A stretch of 64,000 nucleotides of DNA from Candidatus Woesearchaeota archaeon (GCA_014729995.1 WJIZ01000029.1:12779-76778); one strand, 5' to 3'; counted from the stretch's first letter, positions 1-59,559 are shown. Notes: generated from the sequence alone by a model not told the origin. Numbers and translations: made by a program.

Positions 1-1940
1 CTGTTAAATTGGGAGCCTACACACTTGATGGTAAGCATAAAGCACACCACAGGATAGCAAACCACTATCCAAGCAGTAATGAGCCTAGTTTCCCATGGAC
101 TGATACTTCAGAGTGGTACGCTTACTCACTAACTGACGACGGCACACCAATCACAGTTGATGGCGCTTTGGGCGATTGGAGCGGAGCATCAAAATTATTT
201 ACTGAGTGCGACGCAACCCATCAGACCACAGGAGGCAATGTGCCAATAAACAGGTGCTTTGATATGTACGCAACAGTATATGGAGATACGCTTTACATTG
301 GCATTGATTATACAGATGATACAACCGACGATTCGCCAAATACGAACACAGATGGCGCAAAAGTGCTTTTTGCAGTCCCTTATTGGATGCAATATAGTTC
401 GCCATTTAGCATTGGTGAAGAGTCATGCCACAGGATAGAGTTTTACAGTGTGGACGATTTAGGCAATCCTGAGCCAGTTCAGCACCAATGTGTATTCGTA
501 GACAAGACAGGTCCAGGAATAATCAAAAATTACGAAGGGCCTTATTTCGCTGATACCATAAACAACATAAAAGTCGAATGGATAAACAGCAATACAAAAA
601 TCAAAATCAATATAATTGATGACGGAGTTCACAAGTCTGGAATAGCAGAGACAAAATACAGGGTAAAGCAAGTTAACGACGAATACTGTTGGGGAACCAT
701 GGATTGCACAGGAGCAGATGCAAGTGATGTGGGCTGGACAATATTTAATAACCCTCTTTACGGGGAATTCAATATAGGTCAGGAATCATGCCACTTAATC
801 GAAGTTTACAGCGAGGATAATGTAGGCAAGAGCGCTACGCACAAGCAATGTGTATTTGTGGACAACACCTATCCAACTCCGGAAAAGACAGTTGGCAAGC
901 CAAGAAGCAAGTTCATGTGGGATGACTTTGGAGAGTCATTCTATCCTGTCAAGGATAAATGCTGGAGTGCAGATATGTCAGCATGCAACGGAGACATTGA
1001 TTGTGAGATAACAGCATGCCGTGCAGATCCAAACTGTATTGAGTGCTGGAAAACTACTTTGATGACTCCAATCTCGCTCAACTGCATAGACCAGGGGCCT
1101 CACCCAGTCGATAACGAGCACGTATGCTTTCAGGTTGGCCTGGACGGAACAGATGTTACAGACATGTACTGTGGCGAAGAACACTATAATGGTATAATGA
1201 CAAACGACGGCTTCTGCTGTGTAGATCATGAGATAGATCCATTCTATTTTGGGGAAACAACCTACCACAATCTGGCTTATTACTGCGAAGACGCACTTGG
1301 AAACAGCAACAAAGCCATACTGGATGACGAGAAATTCAAGGTAGAGAAGACAGCCTTCAACATAACCATCAACAAAAAGTGGAACGTGATATCAACGCCG
1401 GTGAAGCTGCTTGACGACTCGATGGACCAGGTATTCGCAGATATAAAAGATGACGTAGTAAGTGTCTGGTCATACGATGCTATGGCAGATGAATGGGATT
1501 ACTATATCGCAGACGACAACCCTAAAAATGACTTCCTGACAACTATGGTTCCGGGAGACGGCTACTGGGTATTCGCACTAAACGATACTGTGCTTGTAAT
1601 CGGGGGCGAGCTTATGAGCCCTGCGATGGCACCGCCAAGCAAGCCTATTAAGGGAGATGCATGGAATTTGGTCGGCTATTATGGCGCAGATGATGAGCTG
1701 GGATACTTTGGGCCGGCTGGAAACGGAGACCCTGCAGAGTGTGTTTTCTTTTCACTCTCTGATTCAATGTTCGACATTGGATGGACAGGCCTTGAGACAT
1801 ACTGGGAGCCGCTTAATCCGTACATGTGGGTTTCCTACCAGAAAGCCGACAACCTTGATCCTGGCGCAGGATACTGGATTTTTGCAACAGAAGACGGTGT
1901 TTACGCACCTACCACAGACTGTACAGGTTTGTGGTCTTAA
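1..1940 (+). CDS. Secreted Cys-rich protein, 5' partial (frame open from the window start). Contains an internal duplication: ESCHRIEFYSVDDLGNPEPVQHQCVFVDKTGP and ESCHLIEVYSEDNVGKSATHKQCVFVDNTYP.
   Basis: Long ORF 9..1940 open to the window edge. High Cys content. Internally repeated module seen in the translation. No TM segment at the C-terminus. Confidence 0.6.
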   Translation, partial: VKLGAYTLDGKHKAHHRIANHYPSSNEPSFPWTDTSEWYAYSLTDDGTPITVDGALGDWSGASKLFTECDATHQTTGGNVPINRCFDMYATVYGDTLYIGIDYTDDTTDDSPNTNTDGAKVLFAVPYWMQYSSPFSIGEESCHRIEFYSVDDLGNPEPVQHQCVFVDKTGPGIIKNYEGPYFADTINNIKVEWINSNTKIKINIIDDGVHKSGIAETKYRVKQVNDEYCWGTMDCTGADASDVGWTIFNNPLYGEFNIGQESCHLIEVYSEDNVGKSATHKQCVFVDNTYPTPEKTVGKPRSKFMWDDFGESFYPVKDKCWSADMSACNGDIDCEITACRADPNCIECWKTTLMTPISLNCIDQGPHPVDNEHVCFQVGLDGTDVTDMYCGEEHYNGIMTNDGFCCVDHEIDPFYFGETTYHNLAYYCEDALGNSNKAILDDEKFKVEKTAFNITINKKWNVISTPVKLLDDSMDQVFADIKDDVVSVWSYDAMADEWDYYIADDNPKNDFLTTMVPGDGYWVFALNDTVLVIGGELMSPAMAPPSKPIKGDAWNLVGYYGADDELGYFGPAGNGDPAECVFFSLSDSMFDIGWTGLETYWEPLNPYMWVSYQKADNLDPGAGYWIFATEDGVYAPTTDCTGLWS

Positions 1941-11556: not shown

Positions 11557-11639
11557 TTTTTCTTTTGAAATTATAATCTTATTATTTCCTCAAATCAAAA
11601 CCTATTTAAACAATCTGCATAATTTAAGCTTAAGCCAAG

Positions 11640-11746
11640 GAAAGTATCGTGAAATTCGGTCGCTGGCCCGCAGCCGTTAAAGCCGGAATACTTGCATATT
11701 ACAAGGGTCGAGGATTGTCCGCAGGATTTCTGCGAACATTTTTAAC
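11640..11746 (+). promoter_or_regulatory. Candidate cobalamin (B12) riboswitch-like leader. It resembles the compact AdoCbl-variant class.
   Basis: AGGAAAGUAUCGUGAAAUUCGGUC resembles the conserved GGGAAAG..CGUGAAAUUCG core of Cbl riboswitches. It is followed by GGCCCGCAGCCG, a degenerate B12 box (consensus CCCGCCACUG). A terminal hairpin CGCAG-GAUUU-CUGCG sits 12 nt before the ATG. The context is an ECF S-component plus DUF4430. Confidence 0.4.
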
Positions 11747-12505
11747 ATGTCTAAAAAGCAAAAGCTTAAGCTAAAAAAGAAGAAGAAAGAACAGAAAGAA
11801 AAGCAGAAGCTCTCAACCGAGCAGAGATTAGCAATAAAAGCTGTGCAAAAGCAGCTTCAATTATTGAAACTAAGGGAGCTTTTATTATTGATAGGCTTCA
11901 CAACAGGCGGAGCATTGTTAAGAATTCCGATGCAAGCTATCCCAAGTGCAGAGCCATTAACATTCTTCGCAATACTATCAGGCTGGCTTTTTGGTAGGAA
12001 AAAGGGAGCAGCTGTAGGAGCTTCTTCATTATATATCTCAAATTTCTTCATGTTCGGCGGACAAGGTCCCTGGAGCATTTTGCAGGCAATAGGCTTTGGC
12101 ATAGCGGGCTGGCTAGGGGGCTTGTTAAGAAAAAAAGCATCATACTTAGAAGTGATGATAATTACAATAATTGCTACATTGGTTTTTGAGGTAATTATGA
12201 ACGCTTTCACCCCACTTATGGTGGGCTCATCTATTTTCATGGCTTTTGCGCTTGCATTGCCTTTCACGCTGATACACCTTGCTTCCAACTTCATTTTCGC
12301 TTTAGTATTACCTTCAACAAAAAAATTTGTCGAAAAGACAGGAGGCTTCAATGAAAAGGATATTTGTGCTAGTATTCTTGATAAGTATAATATTAGCACT
12401 AAGCTTGATTGGATTAAGAAATTTAGAAGAAGACCGAAGCACGGGCAAGGCAACATTGATAATAAGGACGATAGGAAGCACAGCACAGGAACAGGTGGAG
12501 CTTGA
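11747..12505 (+). CDS. Membrane protein resembling an ECF-transporter S-component, with a Lys-rich N-terminal tail. The 3' end overlaps the next gene in another frame.
   Basis: Five to six TM helices (GFTTGGALLRIPMQAIP..., GFGIAGWLGGLL). No ecfA or ecfT in the window. Confidence 0.5.
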   Translation: MSKKQKLKLKKKKKEQKEKQKLSTEQRLAIKAVQKQLQLLKLRELLLLIGFTTGGALLRIPMQAIPSAEPLTFFAILSGWLFGRKKGAAVGASSLYISNFFMFGGQGPWSILQAIGFGIAGWLGGLLRKKASYLEVMIITIIATLVFEVIMNAFTPLMVGSSIFMAFALALPFTLIHLASNFIFALVLPSTKKFVEKTGGFNEKDICASILDKYNISTKLDWIKKFRRRPKHGQGNIDNKDDRKHSTGTGGA

Positions 12506-24668: not shown

Positions 24669-26210
24669 ATGGCTTTCAAAGGAGGCATTCACCCGAAATA
24701 CAATAAGATAACTGCAGGAAGCAAGATAGAAAAAGCAGGCCTTCCCGGGAAAATAGTCCTGCCGATGAGCCAGCATGTGGGAAAGCCCTGCGAGCCAATA
24801 GTGAATATAGGAGACTATGTCAGGACAGGCCAGAAAATTGCTGAAAGCGACGCATTCGTCTCCGCCCCTATACATTCTTCTGTTTCAGGCACAGTAAAGT
24901 CTGTCGAAGCCCTCCCCCATCCAATAACAGGAAATCCTGTAAAATCAGTAACTATAGAATCAGACGGCAAGGATGATAAGGTGGAGATGAGGGAAAGGCA
25001 GTACGAAAACCTTTCGAATGAAGAGCTGAAAGAAATAATCAGGGAAGCGGGAATTGTCGGTCTTGGCGGAGCAGCTTTTCCTGCGCACGTAAAGTTAAGC
25101 CCGCCTAAGGACAAGAATATAGACTGCCTGCTAATAAACGGGGCAGAATGTGAGCCCTTTCTGACTACAGACCACAGGCTGATGGTAGAAAGAGCAGACC
25201 AATTATTGGAAGGCATCAGGATTATAAGGAAAATACTCGAAACAAAAGATGTTTTCATAGGCATAGAGAAAAATAAGTCCGACGCTGTCAAATTGTTGTC
25301 CGAAAAATGCAAAGGCCAGAATATCAGGGTAAAGGCTTTGCATGCCAAGTATCCGCAGGGCAGCGAAAAAAAGCTTATTTATGCCGTAAACAGAAGAAAA
25401 GTCCCTGCAGGCGGTCTTCCCATGGATATTGGCTGCGTTGTCCAGAATGTTGGCACTTGTTTGGCTGTTTTTGAAGCTGTTGCGCTCTCCAAGTCGCTCT
25501 ATGAAAGGGTCATCACAGTAACAGGCAGGGTAAACAGGCCTAAAAATATTTTAGTTAGGATAGGCTCATCAGTAAAGGAAGCCATAGAAGAGGCTGATAA
25601 CTATAAAGGCCAGCCAAAAAAGATCATCATGGGCGGACCGATGATGGGATTTGCGCTTCCCACAGATGAGCTGCCGGTAATTAAGGGCACGTCAGGAATA
25701 ATTGTCTTCAATAAGGTTGATATGGATGAGAAAAGGCAGGAAATAGAATGCATAAGGTGCGGTAAATGCGTCCAGAAATGCCCCATGCATCTTCATCCCT
25801 CATTACTGGCGAGATACGCACAAAAAGGAAAATTCGGATTGGCAGAAAAGACATTCGCCATGGACTGTTACGAGTGCGGCTGCTGTGCTTTCATCTGTCC
25901 TTCCCATATCCCCTTAGTCCACTGGATAAGGTATGCTAAGTCAGAGATATTGAGGAAAAGAGTGGAAAGGAAGAAAAAAGAAAAAAAGTCAAAAGAGGCA
26001 AAAGGCAGTGAGCATGCAGAAAAAGGGAGAAAAACAGGGGAAAGTTCAGAAAAGAAAGAAAGTGAAGAAGAAAAGAAGGAAGAAAAACAAGCCAGCAACG
26101 TCCCTGAATCAGGAAAGGAGAAAATAGGTGCCGAAGAGAGCAATGAAAAGCCGCAAGCGGCTGAAGAATACAAAAAAGAAGATAATCCAGAAGAAGACAA
26201 AAAAGAATAA
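24669..26210 (+). CDS. rnfC: Rnf electron-transport complex subunit C, with a ~90-aa Lys/Glu-rich C-terminal tail.
   Basis: GGIHP N-terminus. GLGGAAFPAHVK. INGAECEPFLTTD. Two 4Fe-4S CxxCxxC motifs. Confidence 0.9.
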   Translation: MAFKGGIHPKYNKITAGSKIEKAGLPGKIVLPMSQHVGKPCEPIVNIGDYVRTGQKIAESDAFVSAPIHSSVSGTVKSVEALPHPITGNPVKSVTIESDGKDDKVEMRERQYENLSNEELKEIIREAGIVGLGGAAFPAHVKLSPPKDKNIDCLLINGAECEPFLTTDHRLMVERADQLLEGIRIIRKILETKDVFIGIEKNKSDAVKLLSEKCKGQNIRVKALHAKYPQGSEKKLIYAVNRRKVPAGGLPMDIGCVVQNVGTCLAVFEAVALSKSLYERVITVTGRVNRPKNILVRIGSSVKEAIEEADNYKGQPKKIIMGGPMMGFALPTDELPVIKGTSGIIVFNKVDMDEKRQEIECIRCGKCVQKCPMHLHPSLLARYAQKGKFGLAEKTFAMDCYECGCCAFICPSHIPLVHWIRYAKSEILRKRVERKKKEKKSKEAKGSEHAEKGRKTGESSEKKESEEEKKEEKQASNVPESGKEKIGAEESNEKPQAAEEYKKEDNPEEDKKE

Positions 26211-26211
26211 G

Positions 26212-27183
26212 ATGCCGGAAAAAAAATTTATTGTGGAAAGTTCGCCCCATATATTTTCTTCTAATTATAAATACAAAGTAATGTGGCTTGTTGTGCTGGC
26301 TTTGCTGCCTGCCGCAATTATGGGGGTCATTAACTTTGGTGCGCGTGCCCTCCTCGTTATCATAGTAGCCTTATCAGTCTCCATACTTACTGATGCACTT
26401 TTCGAAAAGCTGAAAGGAAAGCAGATGGTTGTTGAGCAGGGAGCCGCGGTTGTTACCGGCCTGCTGCTCGGAATGATTCTTCCCCCTGCAGTTCCGCTGT
26501 GGGTTCCTGCATTAGGCAGCTTTACCGCGATAGCGCTGGCAAAGCACGCTTTTGGCGGTGCGGGCATGACCATCTTCAATCCTGCGTTGGTAGGAAGGGC
26601 ATTCCTTGTTGCGAGCTTCCCTGCAATAATGACGAGATACACATGGCCAGACGGCATCACATCAGCATCCCCATTGGGCATGCTGAAGGCTGAAGGCTAC
26701 ACACATGCTCTTTCCTTTTTCGGGAGCAGGTTAGCAGCTTACAAGGCAATGTTTTTCGGGAACATAGCAGGCAGCATAGGTGAAACTTCTGCTTTGGCTC
26801 TGCTTATCGGAGGCTTGTTTCTTGTACTGGTGAAAGTTATTGACTGGAAGATTCCAGCTGTCTATATTGGCACTGTATTTGTCCTGACATGGCTGTTTGG
26901 CCAAGATCCCATTTATCATATTTTAGGAGGCGGCCTTTTCATCGGGGCATTCTTCATGGCAACAGCTTATGAAGGCATGCCCATAACCCCTAACGGAAGA
27001 GTCTATTTTGCCTTGGGCCTGGGCATATTGACAGTCGTGATAAGGTTATGGGGCGGCTATCCCGAGGGCGTAAATTACTCCATACTGCTGATGAATGCAG
27101 CCTCTCCCCTGATTGAAAGATTGACAATAAGAAAGCCTTTTGGCTATACGAAAAAGAAAAAAAATGCTGAATCAAATGCTTAA
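26212..27183 (+). CDS. rnfD: Rnf subunit D.
   Basis: VESSPH near the N-terminus. Polytopic membrane protein. ATG at 26212 lies directly after the rnfC stop. Confidence 0.85.
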   Translation: MPEKKFIVESSPHIFSSNYKYKVMWLVVLALLPAAIMGVINFGARALLVIIVALSVSILTDALFEKLKGKQMVVEQGAAVVTGLLLGMILPPAVPLWVPALGSFTAIALAKHAFGGAGMTIFNPALVGRAFLVASFPAIMTRYTWPDGITSASPLGMLKAEGYTHALSFFGSRLAAYKAMFFGNIAGSIGETSALALLIGGLFLVLVKVIDWKIPAVYIGTVFVLTWLFGQDPIYHILGGGLFIGAFFMATAYEGMPITPNGRVYFALGLGILTVVIRLWGGYPEGVNYSILLMNAASPLIERLTIRKPFGYTKKKKNAESNA

Positions 27184-27760
27184 ATCAACACTTGTATTGT
27201 CTTTAGTGTGCTTAATAGCCGCGGCTTTGCTCGGCACAGCCTATATTTTTACAGAGCCTGGAATAGAAGAGCAGAAAGAAGCCGCGCTAAAGGAAAGCCT
27301 GGGCCAGGTTCATACAACAGCAGATGATTTTGAAGCAAAAGACGGCTATTTTGTAGCATTAAAAAACAGCAAAATAATAGGTTATGCGGCTGTTGCAGAG
27401 GCACAGGGCTACGGCGGCACTATAAAAATTCTTGCAGGCATAGACACGGAAAAGAAGCTGACAGGAATAAGGATAATGGAGCATGAGGAAACACCCGGCA
27501 TGGGGGCAAGTGCCCTAAAACCCGAATTTTATTCCCAGTTTAGCGGTCTGCCAGCAGATAAAATAGCCTTAAGAAGAAATGGCGGAAAGATCGATGCAAT
27601 TACTGGCGCCACTATAACAAGCTCTGCTGTTATAGATGCAGTAAAGCAGGCTCTCGAGTCAGAGCTAAGCAGCTTAAAATTCAATAATTCTATTGAAGAA
27701 GCTGATTCTGTAACTTACGCTGTTCCGGGCAATAAATCAGGAGAGATAAAAAATGGCTGA
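27164..27760 (+). CDS. rnfG: Rnf subunit G (FMN-binding).
   Basis: N-terminal TM. GYGGTIKILAGID...ETPGMGA. ITGATITSSAV FMN-attachment motif. Confidence 0.85.
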   Translation: MLNQMLKSTLVLSLVCLIAAALLGTAYIFTEPGIEEQKEAALKESLGQVHTTADDFEAKDGYFVALKNSKIIGYAAVAEAQGYGGTIKILAGIDTEKKLTGIRIMEHEETPGMGASALKPEFYSQFSGLPADKIALRRNGGKIDAITGATITSSAVIDAVKQALESELSSLKFNNSIEEADSVTYAVPGNKSGEIKNG

Positions 27761-28550
27761 AGATGATGAAGAAGAGGTAGAAGAAGAGCCTGAGCTGCTT
27801 CCGAAAGCATTCAAGCAGAAAGTTAAGGCTGTTTGGGCTGTTTTTATGAGTTACTTCAATGAATTCAGCAAGGGAATAACTAAGATAAACCCTATCTTTG
27901 TCATGGCTCTCGGCTTATGCCCGACATTGGCTGTCACTACCAGCCTGGACAATGCTGTCGGCATGGGATTTGCCACCACATTTGTCCTGCTCAGCTCAGC
28001 TGTATTTGTTTCCTCTATAAGAAAAACAGTCCCTTCCAATGTAAGGATTCCTGTTTTCATTGTTATAATTGCTACATTCGTAACCATAGCACAGCTTTTC
28101 ATCAGGGCATTTTCAGCCGAACTGAACAGGGCATTGGGAATATTCCTTCCTTTGATAGTTGTCAACTGTGTAATCCTTGGAAGGGCAGAAAGCTTTTCAT
28201 CAAGAAACAGCATATTAAGGAGCATGCTTGATGCTCTTGGTATAGGAGCAGGCTTTTCGCTGGCTTTATTATTGATAAGCAGCATAAGGGAGCTGCTTGG
28301 CACAGGGGAGCTTTATCTTTTCGGGAACAATCTTCTGAATTTAAGCTGGCTTTTTAATCCGATGCTCGCATTCATATTAGCTCCCGGTGCTTTGCTTACA
28401 ATGGGATTATTGCTCGCTTTCTTCAACTGGCTTGGCAACATTGATTTTAAGAAGCAGTCAGCGCATGTTGAAGAGCACAATGGCGATAATGCAGCCGAAA
28501 AGGCAGAAGGGGAAAGCGAAGAAGAAAAAAAGGAGGAAAAGAAAGGATAA
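27753..28550 (+). CDS. rnfE: Rnf subunit E, with acidic N-terminal and C-terminal tails.
   Basis: ALGLCPTLAVTTSLDNAVGMG and LPLIVVNCVILGRAE, typical of RnfE/NqrD. Confidence 0.85.
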   Translation: MAEDDEEEVEEEPELLPKAFKQKVKAVWAVFMSYFNEFSKGITKINPIFVMALGLCPTLAVTTSLDNAVGMGFATTFVLLSSAVFVSSIRKTVPSNVRIPVFIVIIATFVTIAQLFIRAFSAELNRALGIFLPLIVVNCVILGRAESFSSRNSILRSMLDALGIGAGFSLALLLISSIRELLGTGELYLFGNNLLNLSWLFNPMLAFILAPGALLTMGLLLAFFNWLGNIDFKKQSAHVEEHNGDNAAEKAEGESEEEKKEEKKG

Positions 28551-28563
28551 TTAAATATTCAAA

Positions 28564-29142
28564 ATGGAAAACCTGATAGCAATCCTGATAAGCATGATTT
28601 TCGTAAATAATTTCATACTCACCAAATTCCTCGGCTTATGCCCTTTTTTCGGTGTATCAAAAAAGACCGGAAATGCTGTCGGCATGGGATTTGCAGTAAT
28701 CTTTGTGATGGGAATAGCTTCCGCAACAAGCTGGCTTCTTTATACCTTTGTGCTCGCTCCCCTAAGCCTTGAGTTTCTCCAGATAATAACTTTCATACTT
28801 ATAATAGCTTTCCTTGTACAGCTTGTTGAAATATTCATAAAAAAGTATTCGGATTCCCTGCATAAGGCTTTGGGAATATACCTTCCCCTGATCACCACCA
28901 ATTGTGCTGTATTGGGTGTGGCTTTCCTTAATATACAGGAAGGATATTCATTTTTAGGCAGCCTAGCCGGCGGATTAGGCGCAGGCATAGGCTTTATGCT
29001 GGCTCTGCTGCTGATGTCTGGCATAAGGGAAAGGGTTGAGCTGACGGATGTCCCAAATCCTTTCAGGGGATTGCCGATTGCATTTATAATCGCTTCCCTC
29101 ATGTCGCTGGCATTTTTGGGATTTTCAGGTATGTTACAATGA
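28564..29142 (+). CDS. rnfA: Rnf subunit A.
   Basis: FLGLCPFFGVSKKTGNAVGMG and LPLITTNCAVLG, typical of RnfA/NqrE. Confidence 0.85.
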   Translation: MENLIAILISMIFVNNFILTKFLGLCPFFGVSKKTGNAVGMGFAVIFVMGIASATSWLLYTFVLAPLSLEFLQIITFILIIAFLVQLVEIFIKKYSDSLHKALGIYLPLITTNCAVLGVAFLNIQEGYSFLGSLAGGLGAGIGFMLALLLMSGIRERVELTDVPNPFRGLPIAFIIASLMSLAFLGFSGMLQ

Positions 29143-29993
29143 TGGTATTGCTGTATTCAATAATTGTACTCGGGCTGATGGGGACTGCTGCAGGCCTTAT
29201 CTTAGCTTATGCTTCAAAGAGGTTTGCAGCCTGGCAGGATCCAAATGTAAATCAGATAGAGGAAGTTCTTCCAGGCGTTAACTGCGGGGCATGCGGCTAT
29301 GCCGGCTGCCACGCTTATGCACAGGCTGTTGCATCAGGAAAAGCGCCCATAGACCTGTGCAGGCCCGGCGCGAATAAAGTGGCTGCGCAAATCGGGGAAA
29401 TAATGGGCCAGGAAGCAGGAGAAAAAGAGCCAAAGGTAGCAAAGAGGAAATGTAACGGAGGAAATAAAGAAGCGAAAAAGAAGTTTGATTATGGCAGCAT
29501 ACAGACCTGCAAGGCAGCCTCTTTGGTAAATAACGGCTACAAGCAGTGCTCCTACTCCTGCCTGGGCTTTGGAGATTGCGCTTTAGTCTGCCCTGTGGGT
29601 GCAATAAACATGGATGAAAACAACCTCCCACAGATTGACATGGAAAAATGCATAGCATGTGAAAAATGCGTGATTGAATGCCCTCGCAGCATATTAGAGA
29701 TGGTTCCTAAAAAGGCGCGCGTTCATGTCAGGTGCAGGTCAAAAGATTCAGCAAAAAATGTCGTAAAAGCATGCTCAGTGGGCTGCATTGCCTGCAGGAA
29801 ATGCGAAAAAGAATGCCCTTTTGATGCCATACATGTTATTGATAATTTAGCTGTGATTGATTATTCTAAATGCACCAGCTGCGGCAAGTGCGTTAAAGTA
29901 TGCCCCCACAGCATAATTGAGCAGGAGCCTTTGCCTAAAAAGCCCGGAAAAAAGAAGAAAGAAGGCGAAGAAAAGAACGAAGAAGCAGACTGA
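29139..29993 (+). CDS. rnfB: Rnf subunit B (ferredoxin-like).
   Basis: N-terminal TM. LPGVNCGACGYAGCHAYAQAV. Several CxxCxxCxxxCP 4Fe-4S motifs. Confidence 0.85.
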   Translation: MMVLLYSIIVLGLMGTAAGLILAYASKRFAAWQDPNVNQIEEVLPGVNCGACGYAGCHAYAQAVASGKAPIDLCRPGANKVAAQIGEIMGQEAGEKEPKVAKRKCNGGNKEAKKKFDYGSIQTCKAASLVNNGYKQCSYSCLGFGDCALVCPVGAINMDENNLPQIDMEKCIACEKCVIECPRSILEMVPKKARVHVRCRSKDSAKNVVKACSVGCIACRKCEKECPFDAIHVIDNLAVIDYSKCTSCGKCVKVCPHSIIEQEPLPKKPGKKKKEGEEKNEEAD

Positions 29994-30109
29994 TTCTTAT
30001 GTAACTACCGTAAAGTAATATATATAAAAAATCGAAATATTTATATATAATTAATTTCAAAAATATACTCAATCCTATAATAATGTGGATTTATATATTT
30101 TATTTGCAA

Positions 30110-33100
30110 ATGAAAAAGAAGGTGGGCCTTATGAATTCTAGAATAATTTTTTTAGTAGTTTCAATGCTGTTTGCCGCAGGGATTGTTTCAGCTGTCAACT
30201 GCTGGCAGTATGATGATTCGCAGTCAGACTGTGAAGCTGCAGAAGACTGCCAATGGGAGCAGGATGACTGGGGAGGCTGGTGCCAGGAAAAAGGTTGCTG
30301 GCAATTATGGGATCAAACAGACTGTACTAATTCTACTGATGATCTAAATTGTTTATGGAGATCTTCAACTTCTTCTTCTGGTTGGTGTGAACAAACTTCT
30401 TGTTATTCATGGGAAGGAACCAATGCCGCAACATGTGTTAATAATTCTGCAAATAAAAATTGTCAATGGCAAAATCAATGTTTTGGATACAATCAAAATG
30501 TAAACTGTCCTTCTCTTGGAATTGATGAATGTAGTAACGTAACTGGTTGTACTTGGGGTATGTGTGAAGAAGTAGGCTGTTGGAAATATGATTATACCGA
30601 TCAAGACACATGTCAAGCACAAACAGGTTCTATGGGTAATTCTTGTCGATGGGATAATAATGGAGAATATTGTTATGAACTAGGTTGTTGGGATTATGAT
30701 AATACTAATTATACTGCTTGTGTAAACAATGCTAATGGTTTAGCTTGTCAATGGAATGCTGCTTATCAAAGATGTGAAGAAATTCAATGTTGGAAGTTTG
30801 ATTATACTAATTCATCTGTATGTACAACAGATGCTCTAAATAATTATAACCTAACCTGTACTTGGGATGGACAATATTGTATGAATTCTCAATGTTCTAA
30901 TTTGAATACTCAATCTAATTGTGATACTACACAAGGATGTTCTTGGAAAACACAAACTGGAGGAGGATGGTGTGAAGAAGCACAATGTTGGATCTTCGAC
31001 CAATGGAACGGTGGAACAGAACAACAATGTAATGGTACAAATATAGAACCAGGTAATGATGCATATTCTTTTAATCTAAGTTGTGAATGGGATAATGGTG
31101 CTTGCTACCCTAATGTAGATGAAAACTGTTCTACATTCACAACAGAATCTGGATGTATGGATACATATTATTGTTGGTGGCAATGTTCTGACTGGGACAA
31201 TCAATCAACTTGTACATGTAATGATCCTAAAGATTTAGGAGAAACATATGATGATAACTTCTTCCAAAAATGGAATCCTGGATGTTATATATTCGATATA
31301 AATTATGATTTATGTAATGCTACTTATGCAGGAACAAATGCAAGCTACTGCGAGAATGACACTTCTCTTAATATTCCCTATGACTGCTCATGGCAAAATG
31401 GCACAGGCCAGGAAGAATGCCTTGCTGTTTCGGCATGCCACGATGTTATTGGCTGCCAATTTTCGGCACAGCTTGGCACAGGTCTTTGCGATCCCGAGCC
31501 TGGACATGCATTTCAAAGCCATATAGAGAATGAGGGGCTCAACTGCACAATGATAAACAACACGCAGTTATGCAATAATATACCTGCATTATCTACCTGC
31601 TGTGAATGGAAAGAAGGAACATGCAAGGAAAAGCTTGGCAAAGAATGCTGGGAAAACATGGATAAAAAGATGGAAGATGATTTTGATGGAATTAAATCAT
31701 GTGCAGATGCAAGTATCTTTGCAAACCCAGAAAAAAAATGTAATGAGATGGGAGGTTATCCTTTATTTATGCCTTGTAAATGGAATTCTTCTATAAGTAA
31801 ATGTGAATTTAAATCAACTCAGATATTTGGAGATGCAAGCCAGACTTTATCCCTTATAGAAAATCAGAAAAATTGTGAAGCTGCTGGTGGAAAATGGGTT
31901 CAGGAATGGTACTGCGAGGGAAACAGAAGTGTTCCAGCAGGAAGATGTGAACAGAAAGCAGACGAAGAAAATAATTGTGACGTTGCATGTTTCGCTTGTG
32001 AATTCAAATTCGATGGTACAAACTTTACTAATATAACTAATGCAAAAGCTACATGTTATGGATCAGATTTAGGTTATTGTGAATTTACTGCAGATTCAAC
32101 AGCAAAAAACGGACTAGGAACTTGCAGAGCAAAAGAAGAATTCAAGGCAGGTATTGCTTCTGATTGTACTTCTGATTGTGGAAGTTGTACTTATATGGGT
32201 AATCCTAACGCTGCTTCAAACTTTGATGGTAACAAACAATATTCAAATTGTAATTCTCCAAGTTGTTATTGTGGACAAGCATATGAATTTGGAGATGTAA
32301 AATGTAAATGGGTAAATGATAATACTAGTAATCAAGGAGGATATTGTGTAGATTCAACAACAAAAACCTGCCAGGATAGCTGTGACAGGTGTTATTCAAA
32401 ATCTGACTGTAATAATGATGGAAGAATGGCTTTCAATGCAATAGGAAGTTGTGAATGGGTAACAGAATCTGGAGAAATATCTACCAGTGCTACAGAAGGT
32501 ATCTGCAGAAAGAAAGGAAGCGGAGAAATCTGTTGGGATGGAATTGATAATGATGCAGACGACCTAATTGATTGTGCTGATAATAATTGTTATTCAGATA
32601 GTTTCTGTGGTTTTGTTTCAGGAGACTGTCCTAGTATTACAACCGCAGCAGTATGTAATGCAACTCAATTAGATAATGGATTAAATTGTACTTGGAAATC
32701 TGATGCATGGGGTAGCTTCTGTGACTTCCCAGGATCAGATTGTTATGAAAGAGATGGAACAAACCAAACCTATTGTGAAGCAGCAAGCGGATGTCAATGG
32801 GGTTCTGACTCTATGGGAGGTTCAGGATGGTGTGAACAAGATTGGGATTCCGCAAACGATTGTTGGAGCATGATAACTGAAGCTACTTGTACTGGTGGTT
32901 GTGTATGGACTAATGATACTTGGTGTACTCAAAATCCTACAGATCAATGGTGTCAAGACTTTGGAGGATGGTGTGATCCTGCAGCATTCGCTCCTAAGAA
33001 CTGCTGGAACAGAGATGATACTAATCAATCATGGTGTGAAAATTTAACTGGTTGTTTCTACACAAACTCAACAGGAATGTGTATGGAACAGGGATGTTGG

Positions 33101-36100
33101 AATTATGATTCTAACGTAACTGCATGTAATCAACAAGATAATTGTCAATGGAAACAGGACGATTGGCAACAATGTGAAGTAGACTGGAGTGTAAATTGCT
33201 GGTTATATGACGATAATGAAACACAATGTGATACTGCACCAGAATGTACTTGGTTTGATCAAGGCAGCAATTGGGCATATTGTGGCAACAAATTTGATGT
33301 TTGCTGGAATTACGGTAGTGATTCTAGTTCATGTGATTCTGATTCTAATTGTTACTGGACTGATTGGAATAGTTGTGAAGCTATATGTAGAGATGAAAAT
33401 ACTTATGGTACTGAATCAAGCTGTAACGCTGTAGATGGATGTCATTGGAAATCAGGATGGTGTGAAGATACTAGCATGGGTGGAAGCAGTAGTGGAGTAG
33501 ATTGTGGAAGTAAAGATGAAAGCACTTGTATTGCTGCAACCGAGTGTAAATGGAAAAATCCTGGATGGTGTGATCCTATAGGTTTCTCTGGAGGATCAGC
33601 AGCAAATTCAGCAGGAAGTGGTAATAATGTAGGTTCTGAATGTTGGAAATATGATGGAGAAGAAGCATTATGTACTGACGCTTCTACTATAAACATTAGT
33701 TGTTCATGGATGGACGAACCTTGGCCACATTGTGAACCTGACTGGGGTTCTTCTAATTGCTGGGATCGTAATGAAACTACTTGTAATGAAAGTTGCTGGT
33801 GGAGTGAAGAAGGATGGTGTACTAATGCTAATGAACAATGTAAAATGAATTCTTCTTTATCAGAAAATTCAACTTTATGTGATGCCAATAGTGCTTGTAA
33901 TTGGGCTACATTTAATGAGGGATGTAGAGAAGATTGGAACTCATTAGATAGTTGTTATCAAATTTGGGATCAAGATGATTGTACAAATGCAACAAATAAT
34001 CAGACATGTAAATGGGAAACTTATTATGATCAATTTGATGGTCAAGAAAGAACGGGATGTAGACCTAAATTCGAAGCTTGTCGTGATTTCAGTTTAAGTT
34101 CTTCAGAATGTAATGCTTTAGACGGTTGTTTCTGGAATGAATTTATGGGTATGTGTGACGCTGTTTGTTTCAATATGTCTTTAACAGAACAACAATGTGG
34201 TGCAATCGCTGGTTGTACTTTTGGAGGAGGAAGCTGTGAACCTTCACTATTTACAAAGCAAACTGCAGGAGAATGTACTGGTGCTGGAGGTAAATGGTTA
34301 AACGGATGGTGTAATCCTCCTGGACAAGGAAAAATGTTTGCAGGTATGGATATGGGTCCACCAGTACCAATAGTTACAGAAAATTGTAATTCTAATGGAG
34401 AAGTGGCTTATGCAGATATTTGTGGTGTTGGAATTAAAGATACAGGTAATAGTTTTATTTTTGGTTCACAAACTGCCGATTTTAGTAATGTAGGAGTATG
34501 TAATGGTCAGAATGTTATAACCTTTGGATCAAGTAACTTTGGTATGGGAAGTGCAAACCAAGGTCAGGGAACAAGCCCTGTAAAATACTATGTATATCTT
34601 GATACAGATGGATCAACAACAGGAGGATGTTCGCCAGTAAATAATAAATCAATGAAAGGTTATGAATTCTTCCTTAAGCTTGAATCAACATATAACAGTA
34701 CTCTAGAAAAATCAACAGAAACATTTACTGCAAAGAGATGCAGTTTATCTGGATCTACTTGGAAGATTGCAGATATCAGCCTAAGTACATGGAAACAACA
34801 AATGTGTTCCATGGCAGGAGGGCCTTTAATAGCTGTAACAAAAACAGATCTAGAAAAATTCCCTGAATTATATGATTCAGAAAAAGACGTAAGAGTTTAT
34901 GTGGCAATGGCTGACAGCAGTCGTAATGCAACAGTACCTTATGATGAAGCAGGACCTGGTTGGTATACACCAGGAGCTGTTGATTTCAGTTTAGAAAGTC
35001 TATTCGGAATGGGATCTGATACAGCTAAGAATGAAGATATCATGAAGAAAGGTTATGTTGAACATGAAGACTGTTATTTAACAGGTGATGAAGATAAGGA
35101 TGGAAATGCAGATTGTGATGATTGGGACTGTCAGTATGCTTCTGGTTGTGAAAGTTCAGGAGTTAATGCAGACAACTATACAGATACTTCAATGCCAAAA
35201 ATTACAGGAATTAAGATTGAAGAATACACAGATTCTGCACTAATCATGTACTCAACAAATAAACCAACAAATGGAACACTAGCATTCTATCATAACGATT
35301 CAACATGCGCAACAACTAACGCAACAATCTATGATAAAGGAGTAACCACAACTTCCATGAGAAATCATAAACTATGGCATGATGGACACATCTACAACGA
35401 TGGTGGAGTTAGTAGTTTAGATTATGCTTTAAACAGTAGTACAGATTACTATTACAAATTGAAAGTTTGTGATTCAGGAGGAAAATGTTCTGTAAGTAAA
35501 TGTTCAAGTTTCAAAACAGCTGGAACAAGATGTGCTTATTGTAACTTCGTTACATTGATTAACTCTCCATCAGGATGGACTGTTTGGTATGATCTTAATG
35601 CAAATGGAATATACGAACACGAACAAGGTAATGTTTGTGGTCCAAAAGCTGGAATGAAAACAAACTATACTGAAGGAAGAAAGGCTAACATTAAGATGAC
35701 AGAAGATGATAGTGTTGTTGTTATGGAATTCCTGAATGTAACTTTAACAAAAACAGGACTTACATCTAAAACAAGAAAAATCTCAGAATCTGGATCATTG
35801 ATCCATGATACAACTGAAGATTATGTTGGTATGCCTTCCGCAACAAGGGATAAGATTATCAATAACCTGCATCCTGAACTCTGCAGGATAACCATTCCGA
35901 CAACAGGAGGAGATTGCTCTAAGCTTTATCATTGTGATGACAATGGCGACAATTGCGTGGACAGGACAAGCGAGGAAGGGGCTGATTTGGTTTCTTCTAC
36001 CTCAACAAGCTGTACGTGGACTATACCGTATTGTGAGTTCTCAACATGGGATGCAGATGGAAATCCGTCAGGAGGCACAACAACAACTACTTCATCTTCA

Positions 36101-36685
36101 GGCGGAGGCTCCGGAGGCGGAGGAGGGGCAGGCGTAAGCGTATCAACAGAGAAATTTGAGCATGGCAAGATATACCTGAAAGGCGAAGAAGGAAAAAAGG
36201 TAAGATACATGCTTTATGGGAATTCGCATACAGTAACTATACAGGGCATAAGAGCAGAAGAAGTTGATGTTCTTGTAAAGTCAGTCCTGATACAGGACAC
36301 CATAAAGCTTGGAGAGACAAAATATTATGATGTCACAGAAGACGGCAAGAGCGATATAGGAATCAGAGTGCACAGCATAGCCCTTAATGCAAGCTATGCT
36401 GAGCTGATTATTTCCCTGCTCAGCTATGAGCCGGAGCCGCAGCCAGAAGAGCAGCCAGAGCCGCAGCCCCAACAGCCTATTGAAGAGGAGCCGCCCGTAA
36501 CAGGCCATGTAGCAGAAGAGCCCGAAGAAGGGGAAGAAGAGCCTCAAGGGGGCACCTGGCTCGTAATATCCTTGATTGCAGCAATCGTGGTTATAGCGGC
36601 TGTAGCTGTAATAGCTGTTAAGAGGAAATCCATCCAGGCTCAACAGCATCATGAAAAGCAGCCAAGTCAAGAGAAACAGCATTAA
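30110..36685 (+). CDS. Giant surface protein of about 2190 aa. It has a signal peptide, more than 40 tandem ~33-aa Cys-rich CW-x-(Y/W/F)D modules, many N-x-S/T sequons, a Gly/Ser linker, a Pro/Glu-rich stalk and a C-terminal TM anchor.
   Basis: MKKKVGLMNSRIIFLVVSMLFAAGIVSA. Alternative starts at 30083 and 30131, the latter with a GGTGGG SD. Repeats such as GCWKYDYTDQDTCQAQTGSMGNSCRWDNNGEYCYELGCW. C-terminal WLVISLIAAIVVIAAVAVIAVKRK. Confidence 0.75.
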   Translation: MKKKVGLMNSRIIFLVVSMLFAAGIVSAVNCWQYDDSQSDCEAAEDCQWEQDDWGGWCQEKGCWQLWDQTDCTNSTDDLNCLWRSSTSSSGWCEQTSCYSWEGTNAATCVNNSANKNCQWQNQCFGYNQNVNCPSLGIDECSNVTGCTWGMCEEVGCWKYDYTDQDTCQAQTGSMGNSCRWDNNGEYCYELGCWDYDNTNYTACVNNANGLACQWNAAYQRCEEIQCWKFDYTNSSVCTTDALNNYNLTCTWDGQYCMNSQCSNLNTQSNCDTTQGCSWKTQTGGGWCEEAQCWIFDQWNGGTEQQCNGTNIEPGNDAYSFNLSCEWDNGACYPNVDENCSTFTTESGCMDTYYCWWQCSDWDNQSTCTCNDPKDLGETYDDNFFQKWNPGCYIFDINYDLCNATYAGTNASYCENDTSLNIPYDCSWQNGTGQEECLAVSACHDVIGCQFSAQLGTGLCDPEPGHAFQSHIENEGLNCTMINNTQLCNNIPALSTCCEWKEGTCKEKLGKECWENMDKKMEDDFDGIKSCADASIFANPEKKCNEMGGYPLFMPCKWNSSISKCEFKSTQIFGDASQTLSLIENQKNCEAAGGKWVQEWYCEGNRSVPAGRCEQKADEENNCDVACFACEFKFDGTNFTNITNAKATCYGSDLGYCEFTADSTAKNGLGTCRAKEEFKAGIASDCTSDCGSCTYMGNPNAASNFDGNKQYSNCNSPSCYCGQAYEFGDVKCKWVNDNTSNQGGYCVDSTTKTCQDSCDRCYSKSDCNNDGRMAFNAIGSCEWVTESGEISTSATEGICRKKGSGEICWDGIDNDADDLIDCADNNCYSDSFCGFVSGDCPSITTAAVCNATQLDNGLNCTWKSDAWGSFCDFPGSDCYERDGTNQTYCEAASGCQWGSDSMGGSGWCEQDWDSANDCWSMITEATCTGGCVWTNDTWCTQNPTDQWCQDFGGWCDPAAFAPKNCWNRDDTNQSWCENLTGCFYTNSTGMCMEQGCWNYDSNVTACNQQDNCQWKQDDWQQCEVDWSVNCWLYDDNETQCDTAPECTWFDQGSNWAYCGNKFDVCWNYGSDSSSCDSDSNCYWTDWNSCEAICRDENTYGTESSCNAVDGCHWKSGWCEDTSMGGSSSGVDCGSKDESTCIAATECKWKNPGWCDPIGFSGGSAANSAGSGNNVGSECWKYDGEEALCTDASTINISCSWMDEPWPHCEPDWGSSNCWDRNETTCNESCWWSEEGWCTNANEQCKMNSSLSENSTLCDANSACNWATFNEGCREDWNSLDSCYQIWDQDDCTNATNNQTCKWETYYDQFDGQERTGCRPKFEACRDFSLSSSECNALDGCFWNEFMGMCDAVCFNMSLTEQQCGAIAGCTFGGGSCEPSLFTKQTAGECTGAGGKWLNGWCNPPGQGKMFAGMDMGPPVPIVTENCNSNGEVAYADICGVGIKDTGNSFIFGSQTADFSNVGVCNGQNVITFGSSNFGMGSANQGQGTSPVKYYVYLDTDGSTTGGCSPVNNKSMKGYEFFLKLESTYNSTLEKSTETFTAKRCSLSGSTWKIADISLSTWKQQMCSMAGGPLIAVTKTDLEKFPELYDSEKDVRVYVAMADSSRNATVPYDEAGPGWYTPGAVDFSLESLFGMGSDTAKNEDIMKKGYVEHEDCYLTGDEDKDGNADCDDWDCQYASGCESSGVNADNYTDTSMPKITGIKIEEYTDSALIMYSTNKPTNGTLAFYHNDSTCATTNATIYDKGVTTTSMRNHKLWHDGHIYNDGGVSSLDYALNSSTDYYYKLKVCDSGGKCSVSKCSSFKTAGTRCAYCNFVTLINSPSGWTVWYDLNANGIYEHEQGNVCGPKAGMKTNYTEGRKANIKMTEDDSVVVMEFLNVTLTKTGLTSKTRKISESGSLIHDTTEDYVGMPSATRDKIINNLHPELCRITIPTTGGDCSKLYHCDDNGDNCVDRTSEEGADLVSSTSTSCTWTIPYCEFSTWDADGNPSGGTTTTTSSSGGGSGGGGGAGVSVSTEKFEHGKIYLKGEEGKKVRYMLYGNSHTVTIQGIRAEEVDVLVKSVLIQDTIKLGETKYYDVTEDGKSDIGIRVHSIALNASYAELIISLLSYEPEPQPEEQPEPQPQQPIEEEPPVTGHVAEEPEEGEEEPQGGTWLVISLIAAIVVIAAVAVIAVKRKSIQAQQHHEKQPSQEKQH

Positions 36686-37025
36686 TTTTTATTTGTTGTA
36701 ACTTTATTTTTTTGTAAATTTGGGTTTTTATTTTTTTAAATAATATTCTTTTTTTCTTGTCAAATCTTTCTATCGCATACCTTAACATTGTTCTAGGCAT
36801 TCTCTTATAGTGTTTTTTCAGGAATTCTTCTTCCAGGCTATTGCATTTTTTCCGACTTCCCTTAGCATCCAACCCCCCCTTATGTATAAGGTCATGCTCA
36901 TCATTTACCAGCATTTTGGAGATTTTTAAAGTTTCTTTTGCTTCGCCATTCCTTATGAATGCATATGTTGCCAGTATTGCTATTCTTCTTTCCCACATAT
37001 TTCCGGATTTGCCTGCTTTTCTCAT
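36618..37025 (-). pseudogene. C-terminal fragment of an AlkD-like (HEAT-repeat) DNA-alkylation repair enzyme. Likely a gene remnant. Its 3' end overlaps the end of the giant gene by 68 nt.
   Basis: WERRIAILATYAFIRNGE...LIHKGGLDAKG resembles the C-terminal third of DNA alkylation repair proteins. At 135 aa it is well short of the ~230 aa expected. Confidence 0.35.
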
Positions 37026-59478: not shown

Positions 59479-59559
59479 AGCTTTGCCATGGATTATATAT
59501 AAATGTTTGTTATGACTAAAAAAGAGAAAATTTATAAAAAGCCCCTATTTTTGTCTGTT

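Follow-up and report, generated by a model that had tools for sequence, protein, structure and literature searches.

A giant cysteine-module surface protein of a Woesearchaeota archaeon as a candidate envelope glycoprotein

Introduction

What would a small archaeon do with an outsized, cysteine-rich surface protein? The question is raised by a gene in a 64,000-nucleotide stretch from a Candidatus Woesearchaeota archaeon (GCA_014729995.1 WJIZ01000029.1:12779-76778), which was analysed as a whole and is called the window here. A first-pass annotation of this DNA had described the gene product as a giant surface protein made of tandem cysteine-rich modules and as a candidate for host attachment. 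Few uncultured archaea are as widespread as the Woesearchaeota and Pacearchaeota. We know of no experimental work on their envelopes or on how they contact their partners.

30083..36685, + strand: the whole gene, an uninterrupted open reading frame (ORF) of 2200 amino acids (aa), coordinates including the stop codon

The reading that we favour, and to which we give an even chance, is that the gene encodes a general envelope or coat glycoprotein, S-layer-like or forming a canopy, that is found lineage-wide in DPANN archaea. The evidence for this reading, and for three others, is given below in the order in which it bears on the question.

A secreted, anchored and cysteine-rich protein

The 2200-aa product contains 174 cysteines, an even number (7.9% of residues), and 4.0% tryptophan, versus about 0-2% Cys and 0-1.7% Trp in most other ORFs of the window; the exception is the Fe-S protein RnfB, with 8.5% Cys. 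N-x-S/T sequons number 49, compared with 28.3±4.8 in 2000 residue shuffles (maximum 44), and thus all three of the compositional excesses noticed in the first-pass annotation hold. In 16 of the 49 query positions the sequon is kept in at least 70% of family members; conserved sequons include N209, N492, N1615, N1730, N1861 and N1885. The family median is 64 sequons. A hydropathy scan found exactly two hydrophobic segments, an N-terminal one at aa 17-37 and a C-terminal one at aa 2159-2179, and the ectodomain has a mass of about 234 kDa and an isoelectric point of 4.1.

30131..30193, + strand: Sec-type signal peptide, aa 17-37, MNSRIIFLVVSMLFAAGIVSA followed by VN; one of the two hydrophobic segments, with the same layout in homologs
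36422..36556, + strand: Pro/Glu-rich acidic stalk, aa 2114-2158, read from the sequence, with a low-complexity PARP-like Pfam match; varies in the family
36557..36619, + strand: single C-terminal transmembrane (TM) helix, aa 2159-2179, from the hydropathy scan
36620..36682, + strand: short basic cytoplasmic tail, KRKSIQAQQHHEKQPSQEKQH, read from the sequence; homolog tails are K/R-rich

Stalk residues aa 2117-2132 read PEPQPEEQPEPQPQQP, and KRKS follows directly behind the TM helix, in agreement with the stalk and membrane anchor proposed earlier. A C-terminal TM helix as in the query is present in 112 of 120 homologs, and a signal peptide was seen in the N-termini listed for 70 homologs, in which the first module comes directly after an A-x-x-C-W site behind the signal peptide. 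The traits of an S-layer-type protein (secreted, membrane-anchored, N-glycosylated) are therefore all found, with the glycosylation predicted from the sequons. The protein is extracellular, type-I membrane-anchored and probably N-glycosylated, and it comes from a small-genome DPANN archaeon; the 100% identical protein at NCBI (P0001) is labelled Candidatus Woesearchaeota.

In roughly half of the family, the C-terminal TM helix opens with one or two Trp, often as W-L-W (for example P0004, P0017, P0019, P0023, P0032 and P0050), without a strict motif (WxW in 16 of 112).

The four-cysteine modules

Modules were counted with a profile hidden Markov model (HMM) that was seeded with ten modules chosen by eye and then iterated on the protein. 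It identified 22 modules at i-E<0.01, against 0.0 per shuffled Cys-rich core (50 shuffles), and about 29 four-Cys units were tallied by eye. The figure of more than 40 tandem modules given previously is thus an overestimate. Nor is the protein built from one tandem array, since the modules lie in two separate blocks (aa 40-521 and aa 849-1412) that make up about half of it; the remainder comprises a conserved Cys-rich centre, two acidic double-disulfide motifs and four beta-sandwich domains.

30200..31645, + strand: module block A, aa 40-521, 14 four-Cys units, 9 significant by HMM
31646..32518, + strand: conserved central Cys-rich region, aa 522-812, non-canonical, from the conservation profile; no Pfam match
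32627..34318, + strand: module block C, aa 849-1412, about 15 four-Cys units, 13 significant by HMM

The module is about 33 aa long, with four Cys and the consensus C-W-x-[YF]-D-x3-5-C-x4-9-C-x-W-x3-10-C-[ED]-[ED], and an N-x-[ST] sequon is frequent in its first or second loop. The unit motif of the first-pass annotation, G-C-W-x-(Y/W/F)-D-x3-C-x5-8-C-x-W-x6-9-C-E-E, fits about 12 canonical modules. Between aa 522 and 848 the repeat HMM produced insignificant matches only, despite the high Cys content, and aa 1413-2200 is not repeat-built. Block A holds a query-specific extra module at aa 411-451, and block C has query-specific insertions at aa ~985-1005 and ~1281-1385. Indels relative to the family are whole four-Cys units, and because the query-specific insertions add such whole units, the query is the most Cys-rich member of the family (174 Cys versus a family median of 152).

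A structure was predicted with AlphaFold2 (AF2) for aa 37-470 from a 41-sequence alignment (model 1), with an overall predicted local distance difference test score (pLDDT) of 76.9 and values of 85-93 over the first eight modules. In the predicted module fold, a helical turn formed by CWxYD is followed by a short helix that runs to the second Cys and by a beta-hairpin from C-x-W to the fourth Cys.

We infer intramodule disulfides: the Cys are not spaced as in metal sites, additional ones come two or four at a time, and a confident module fold is obtained with no cofactor. The extreme Cys content would also fit a metal-binding or redox-active surface protein, in which about 170 Cys bind Fe, Zn or Cu or serve as an extracellular thiol buffer or a sink for electrons, possibly in connection with Rnf, and the habitat is probably anoxic, which would disfavour disulfides. 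The modules, however, lack CxxC, CxxCH or any other metal-cluster spacing, AF2 folds them confidently with no cofactor, the number of Cys is even, and extra Cys come as pairs or whole four-Cys units. We return to this explanation with the gene neighbourhood below.

Searches with the module and the protein

Pfam searches with the whole protein at E<=1 retrieved only the low-complexity PARP match on the stalk, and the module blocks scanned alone retrieved none at E<=10. Among 24 diverse homologs at E<=1, no Pfam family was found in more than three members, and none of the families found was a Cys-repeat family. NCBIfam retrieved only a sub-threshold acidic motif in the query. Sequence searches of the PDB yielded only a Teneurin-4 motif with the family profile and only chance Tctex matches with the module profile. 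A Foldseek search of the module-array model against the PDB returned nothing at E<=1 (best E 1.2), with LRP2 and NEL as the top matches; small disulfide modules are hard targets for such methods, and a distant likeness may have been missed. The earlier statement that the repeat matches no nameable type is borne out, no EGF-like or other named Pfam family having been retrieved.

A HMMER search of 1.84 billion representative proteins with the module retrieved 79 at E<=1e-3, mostly collinear orthologs of the focal protein or fragments thereof. The outsiders carry a simpler module and comprise four fibre-like proteins, a beta-helix archaeal surface protein, a small secreted protein, and P0123. The four fibre-like proteins (P0156, P0137, P0171 and P0178) share the repeat C-S-x-Y-D-G-D-Q-x-x-C-E-x-T-x-G-C-S-W, and no PHROGs match was found for the fibre-like module proteins. 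With hhalign, the module alignment and the outsider units gave 95-96% probability, a value that is circular, as the units had been found with that same profile. In these searches the module had no curated counterpart and hardly occurred outside the focal family. No description of either family or module was found in full-text literature searches, whose coverage excludes most subscription journals, and the protein sequence is public but unnamed.

Two of the outsiders were looked at further. P0156 (L082, 3897-5855) lies on an 11.6-kb phage-like contig with a ParB-methylase and a P22/SU10-type portal, directly followed by a thioredoxin-fold gene (L082, 5867-6373). P0123 is an 850-aa mucin-like single-pass membrane protein with seven units of the form C-F-S-F-x-D-Q-A-A-C-E-A-x-x-x-C-Q-W-x-x-x-Y-G-F-G-F-C, matched by the archaeal module profile at E 5e-24. 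P0123 passes the threshold of PF10659, the C-terminal domain of the trypanosome VSG (26.3 bits vs 21.4), and no match was found between it and the VSG chains in the PDB.

Conservation across DPANN archaea

A search of 5.8 billion proteins retrieved at least 131 homologs, nearly all of 1800-2750 aa and 27-63% identical over the full length. Their sources are Woesearchaeota, Pacearchaeota, Aenigmarchaeota, Nanoarchaeota or entries labelled just 'archaeon', and the homologs in DPANN genomes that the first-pass annotation proposed looking for are thus present as full-length proteins in Woesearchaeota, Pacearchaeota and related DPANN metagenome-assembled genomes (MAGs). Most are without a name, a few are called 'PGF-pre-PGF domain-containing protein', and precomputed Pfam domains are blank for 119 of the 120 homologs listed.

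Several records with full orthologs at 36-55% identity are third-party annotation MAG records labelled 'uncultured Methanosarcinales archaeon', and single ones are labelled Altiarchaeota or Iainarchaeum (odd labels: L018, L020, L044, L052, L054, L062-L064, L069, L071, L072, L075, L080 and L081). These taxonomic labels are probably unreliable.

Nearly every query Cys is kept in 93-100% of aligned homologs (alignments of 60, 41 and 24 sequences), and many Trp, Gly and Asp positions are likewise conserved. By column, identity runs at 41-44% for the N-terminal modules, reaches 52-68% over aa 601-700 and aa 1500-1950, and is low only in the stalk; aa 601-700 (58-66%) is the best-conserved stretch of the N-terminal two thirds. 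At the DNA level, no tandem repetition was found in the gene except for a 12-nt microrepeat in the stalk (36429-36468), and the module array is therefore old. With no DNA tandem repeats, and with the modules positionally orthologous across the family, a recent tandem expansion was ruled out. By these alignments the architecture is old and positionally fixed, and is no fast-evolving tandem array.

The family looks single-copy per genome across DPANN archaea of the Woesearchaeota/Pacearchaeota type. The 79 loci listed each lie on a different contig or assembly, with at most one copy per contig; a single locus each is found on the complete GW2011_AR15 archaeal chromosome and on a nearly complete contig of 1.3 Mb.

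These data bear on the proposal of a host-attachment adhesin, in which the long Cys-rich rods would bind a ligand on the host cell surface and be specialised for cell-cell contact. DPANN archaea are generally regarded as episymbiotic, the source is a DPANN archaeon, and the giant ectodomain has its N-terminus pointing away from the membrane. The model of the C-terminal half described below also matches the giant adhesins SiiE, Bap and GhpA, and the simplified module relatives in fibre-like proteins, one of them on a phage-like contig, could reflect a receptor-binding context. Nevertheless, there is no hypervariable or lineage-specific tip, as the N-terminal modules are 41-44% identical with every Cys fixed, although the hosts are presumably different. 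Beyond the limit of one copy per contig, no paralogous families or cassettes were found, and Pfam searches of the query, its segments and 24 homologs retrieved no lectin or other recognisable binding domain. We regard the adhesin as the main rival, possible but doubtful. The full-length conservation, the apparent single copy, the lone gene and the absence of a variable tip argue for a coat rather than a host-specific adhesin.

The membrane-proximal half and the acidic motifs

A second AF2 model, covering aa 1390-2110 (model 2), is all-beta, with a pLDDT of 84 and a predicted template-modelling score of 0.73. It consists of a sandwich of about 210 residues, an FN3/Ig-like domain, a beta domain of about 170 residues, a disordered linker and a small final sandwich.

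34364..34999, + strand: beta-sandwich domain D, aa 1428-1639, with a conserved YLDTDGSTTGGC motif; AF2, pLDDT mostly 85-95
35201..35515, + strand: FN3/Ig-like beta-sandwich, aa 1707-1811; AF2 strands at model residues 318-422 and Foldseek matches to FN3 arrays
35543..36052, + strand: beta-rich domain E, aa 1821-1990, ending in the invariant C-x-W-x-I-P-Y-C-E-F-S; AF2, 49-62% conservation
36068..36160, + strand: Gly/Ser/Thr-rich disordered linker, aa 1996-2026; pLDDT <50 at model residues 607-637, and composition
36173..36409, + strand: membrane-proximal beta-sandwich, aa 2031-2109; AF2, pLDDT 82-95
32519..32608, + strand: acidic double-disulfide motif 1, aa 813-842, EICWDGIDNDADDLIDCADNNCYSDSFC; NCBIfam NF033662, 24.4 bits, cutoff 41
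35072..35152, + strand: acidic double-disulfide motif 2, aa 1664-1690, CYLTGDEDKDGNADCDDWDCQYASGC; NF033662 reports two stretches in the query

Domain D has 43-57% family identity and no Pfam match above threshold. The FN3/Ig-like domain is the most conserved part of the protein (52-68% identity), and it gives weak Pur_ac_phosph_N matches in 3 of 24 homologs. Foldseek matches of model 2 include FN3/Ig arrays, macroglobulins, giant adhesins and one bacterial S-layer protein, at E 1e-4 to 1e-2; the S-layer match, to Sap, is generic (E 3e-3, TM-score 0.09). At the place equivalent to the small final sandwich, the homologs P0024, P0025, P0040 and P0105 carry a PGF-pre-PGF domain (TIGR04213, 66-94 bits), which was not matched in the query, whose copy is too divergent to score. 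The PGF/PEF/PIP sorting motif is absent from the query and occurs in one of the 112 homolog C-termini with a TM helix, and we therefore ruled out that the protein is an archaeosortase A (PGF-CTERM) substrate.

Acidic motif 1 is invariant in the family, and with the family profile it matches the Teneurin-4 Cys-rich fragment 7plp_A at E 3e-3. Motif 2 corresponds to homolog stretches at ~1445-1479, and its Cys are invariant. In four homologs tested, NF033662 scored 18.9-33.7 bits, also below the curated cutoff of 41. An NF033662-like motif can be clearly read twice in the sequence, but the protein is not a member by the NCBI threshold. Acidic motif 1 probably binds Ca2+.

Were the protein a receptor or a scavenging platform at the surface, for instance one for glycans, peptides or Ca2+, the beta-sandwiches and acidic motifs would be its functional part and the rods only spacers. 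The best-conserved parts of the protein are indeed not the modules but the two 52-68% stretches named above; the two acidic DxDxDG-like motifs are invariant, and 3 of 24 homologs give weak EF-hand matches. Pfam, on the other hand, recognised no enzymatic or binding family in the query, its segments or the 24 homologs, and no co-encoded transporter was found among the neighbours in two genomes or in the downstream flanks of 79 loci. On balance, we hold such a platform to be quite unlikely.

Gene boundaries and neighbourhood

The start used in the first-pass annotation, 30110, is the ATG of Met10 in the 2200-aa ORF. The NCBI record P0001, 'hypothetical protein GF323_03740 [Candidatus Woesearchaeota archaeon]', has 2184 aa and starts at Met17, the ATG at 30131. 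A GGTGG, read from the sequence, sits 6-10 nt 5' of this ATG, which is likely the true start of the gene, giving 2184 aa.

29994..30130, + strand: AT-rich intergenic region and leader with several TATA-like boxes, a putative promoter of the gene's own, read from the sequence
36686..36745, + strand: T-rich tract 3' of the stop codon, a putative archaeal oligo-T terminator, read from the sequence

A complete rnfCDGEAB operon (window 24669-29993, + strand) lies directly 5' of the focal gene. The gap of 90-140 nt and the shared strand are the remaining points in favour of a metal or redox role, perhaps linked to Rnf. The Rnf neighbourhood, however, is missing from both other genomes in which upstream genes were compared, and in the downstream flanks of 79 fetched loci no neighbour family was common to more than six loci. 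Both the upstream and the downstream neighbours of the gene differ between genomes (two other genomes compared), and the Rnf adjacency is therefore read as coincidental. Since the upstream partner is not conserved in other genomes, the focal gene appears to be transcribed on its own, and the non-conserved neighbours rule out a functional tie to the Rnf operon or to any operon partner. The focal gene stands alone, without conserved synteny. Taking these points together with the module features, we give very little credence to a metal-binding or redox-active protein.

An envelope coat and the points against it

We return to the envelope or coat glycoprotein as the favoured reading. In such a coat, the acidic stalk would keep the beta-sandwich half clear of the membrane, and this half would form the base, from which module rods, covered with glycans and locked by disulfides, would project outward. 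Short conserved C-E-E-x-x-C-W junctions could stiffen the rods, which would provide a protease- and stress-resistant outer surface and at the same time a contact face with partners.

Several points weigh against this reading. The 126 relatives confirmed in a scan of one genome per GTDB species are a lower bound, as the scan was pattern-limited, and do not demonstrate near-universality in the clade; no family member comes from a cultured organism. Classical S-layer proteins are usually Cys-poor, and the query is 8% Cys; no known S-layer family was matched by the query in Pfam or NCBIfam, or by the 24 homologs in Pfam, and a lattice is putative. The FN3/Ig matches of model 2 are generic, with E values of only 1e-4 to 1e-2 and low TM-scores. 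The disulfides are deduced from the even Cys count and from the paired gain and loss of Cys, not from coordinates, and the organism appears to be anaerobic, so that 87 extracellular disulfides are non-trivial.

The gene takes up about 0.5% of a genome of about 1 Mb, and some 150 Cys positions are fixed in more than 100 species. The family is thus a concrete candidate for the main surface component of Woesearchaeota and Pacearchaeota, and its module is an uncurated small disulfide unit missing from domain databases. In Lake Dziani Dzaha, 'S-layer protein genes' are reported to be among the ten most expressed genes of Woesearchaeota (PMC11606122). A further puzzle posed by the family is how a minimal-genome anaerobe would make and keep about 87 extracellular disulfides.

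Other features of the window

The first-pass annotation had counted the focal protein as one of three giant Cys-rich extracellular proteins in the window. Two other large Cys-containing ORFs do exist, one of which has only 3.4% Cys.

59503->63999, + strand: second giant secreted Cys-rich ORF, running past the window end, at least 1499 aa, 6.6% Cys
<3..1937, + strand: ORF running off the window start, the C-terminal at least 645 aa of a large protein, 3.4% Cys
11620-11701, + strand: match to the AdoCbl-II cobalamin riboswitch RF01689, 42.3 bits vs a gathering threshold of 36.5, E 9e-7

The ORF at 59503-63999 contains many C-D-G-x-D-N-D-C-D-G (MopE-like) motifs and a beta-helix-like middle. Kinship of the focal protein with either ORF was ruled out, as they have no modules in common with it and no BLAST similarity to it. 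The RF01689 match lies 45 nt 5' of an ORF (11747-12505) for a DUF6580 / ECF S-component-like membrane protein. Archaea seldom carry riboswitches, which makes one for B12 unusual in a DPANN archaeon.

Comparison with known systems

The module has a suggestive likeness, at the level of sequence pattern, to the VSG C-terminal domain (VSG-C) and to PSI-type 'C-x-W' modules. In the VSG C-terminal domain (PF10659), MITat1.2 (1xu6) has the signature C-x7-C-x3-C-x-W-x8-C, in the same order and with similar spacing as the module; the domain sequence in PDB 1xu6/7p56 is SCNKKDQNECKSPCKWHNDAENKKC. In contrast, neither the query nor the 24 homologs give a match to PF10659 or PF01508 even at E<=1, and 1xu6 scores 2.2 bits against the module HMM and is not among the PDB profile matches at E<=10. 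We set VSG homology aside and keep the resemblance only, as the direct score is 2.2 bits and the sole link is indirect, via P0123. P0178 and P0187 match the surface antigen repeats of Paramecium (PF01508) below threshold, and the module differs from Giardia VSP in having no VSP-type CxxC. These protist coats (VSG, VSP and Paramecium antigens) are nevertheless like the query in concept, being membrane-anchored, glycosylated and Cys-rich, and belonging to small or parasitic cells.

A more far-reaching version of the envelope reading would be that, in DPANN archaea of the Woesearchaeota/Pacearchaeota type, coats of 2000-aa type-I glycoproteins with about 80 disulfides each are an unrecognised kind of archaeal envelope, and that their four-Cys 'C-x-W' module is part of a wider, uncurated class, whose other members would be found in fibre-like proteins of viruses, in a few secreted proteins of bacteria and eukaryotes, and possibly in VSG-C. 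We consider this unlikely; if true, the family would be the counterpart in prokaryotes of the Cys-rich coats of parasitic protists, or would even be related to them.

With the PSI (plexin-semaphorin-integrin) and EGF-like domains of animal adhesion receptors the module shares the character of a small disulfide-rich unit, a G-C-x-W core, and occurrence in rod-like arrays in large type-I surface receptors. The difference is in the cysteines, which number four in the module, versus six in EGF and eight in PSI. The PSI domain (PF01437) has about 50 aa, eight Cys, a CxxC and a C-x-W-C core, and the module does not fit it, having four Cys, no CxxC and 3-10 residues from C-x-W to the last Cys. Nor were EGF-like, PSI or TNFR-type folds matched in the Foldseek search at E<=1e-3, the best PDB match standing at E 1.2. 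The likeness to NF033662 and Teneurin lies in the two invariant C-x-D-G-x-D-N-D-x-D-x-x-x-D-C-x-D-x-x-C motifs of the query; it differs in that the query has only two copies, which are connectors and distinct from the modules that the first-pass annotation described.

Archaeal S-layer glycoproteins of the haloarchaeal csg type (PGF-CTERM) resemble the query in their signal peptide, large acidic N-glycosylated ectodomain, beta-sandwiches near the membrane, low-complexity stalk, single C-terminal TM helix and basic tail, and homologs in the focal family carry TIGR04213 just ahead of the stalk. Against this, the PGF/PEF/PIP motif of PGF-CTERM proteins is found in only 1 of the 112 homologs, and about half of the query ectodomain consists of Cys-module rods. 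The query belongs with the archaeal anchored surface glycoproteins, in an unusual form built with Cys modules.

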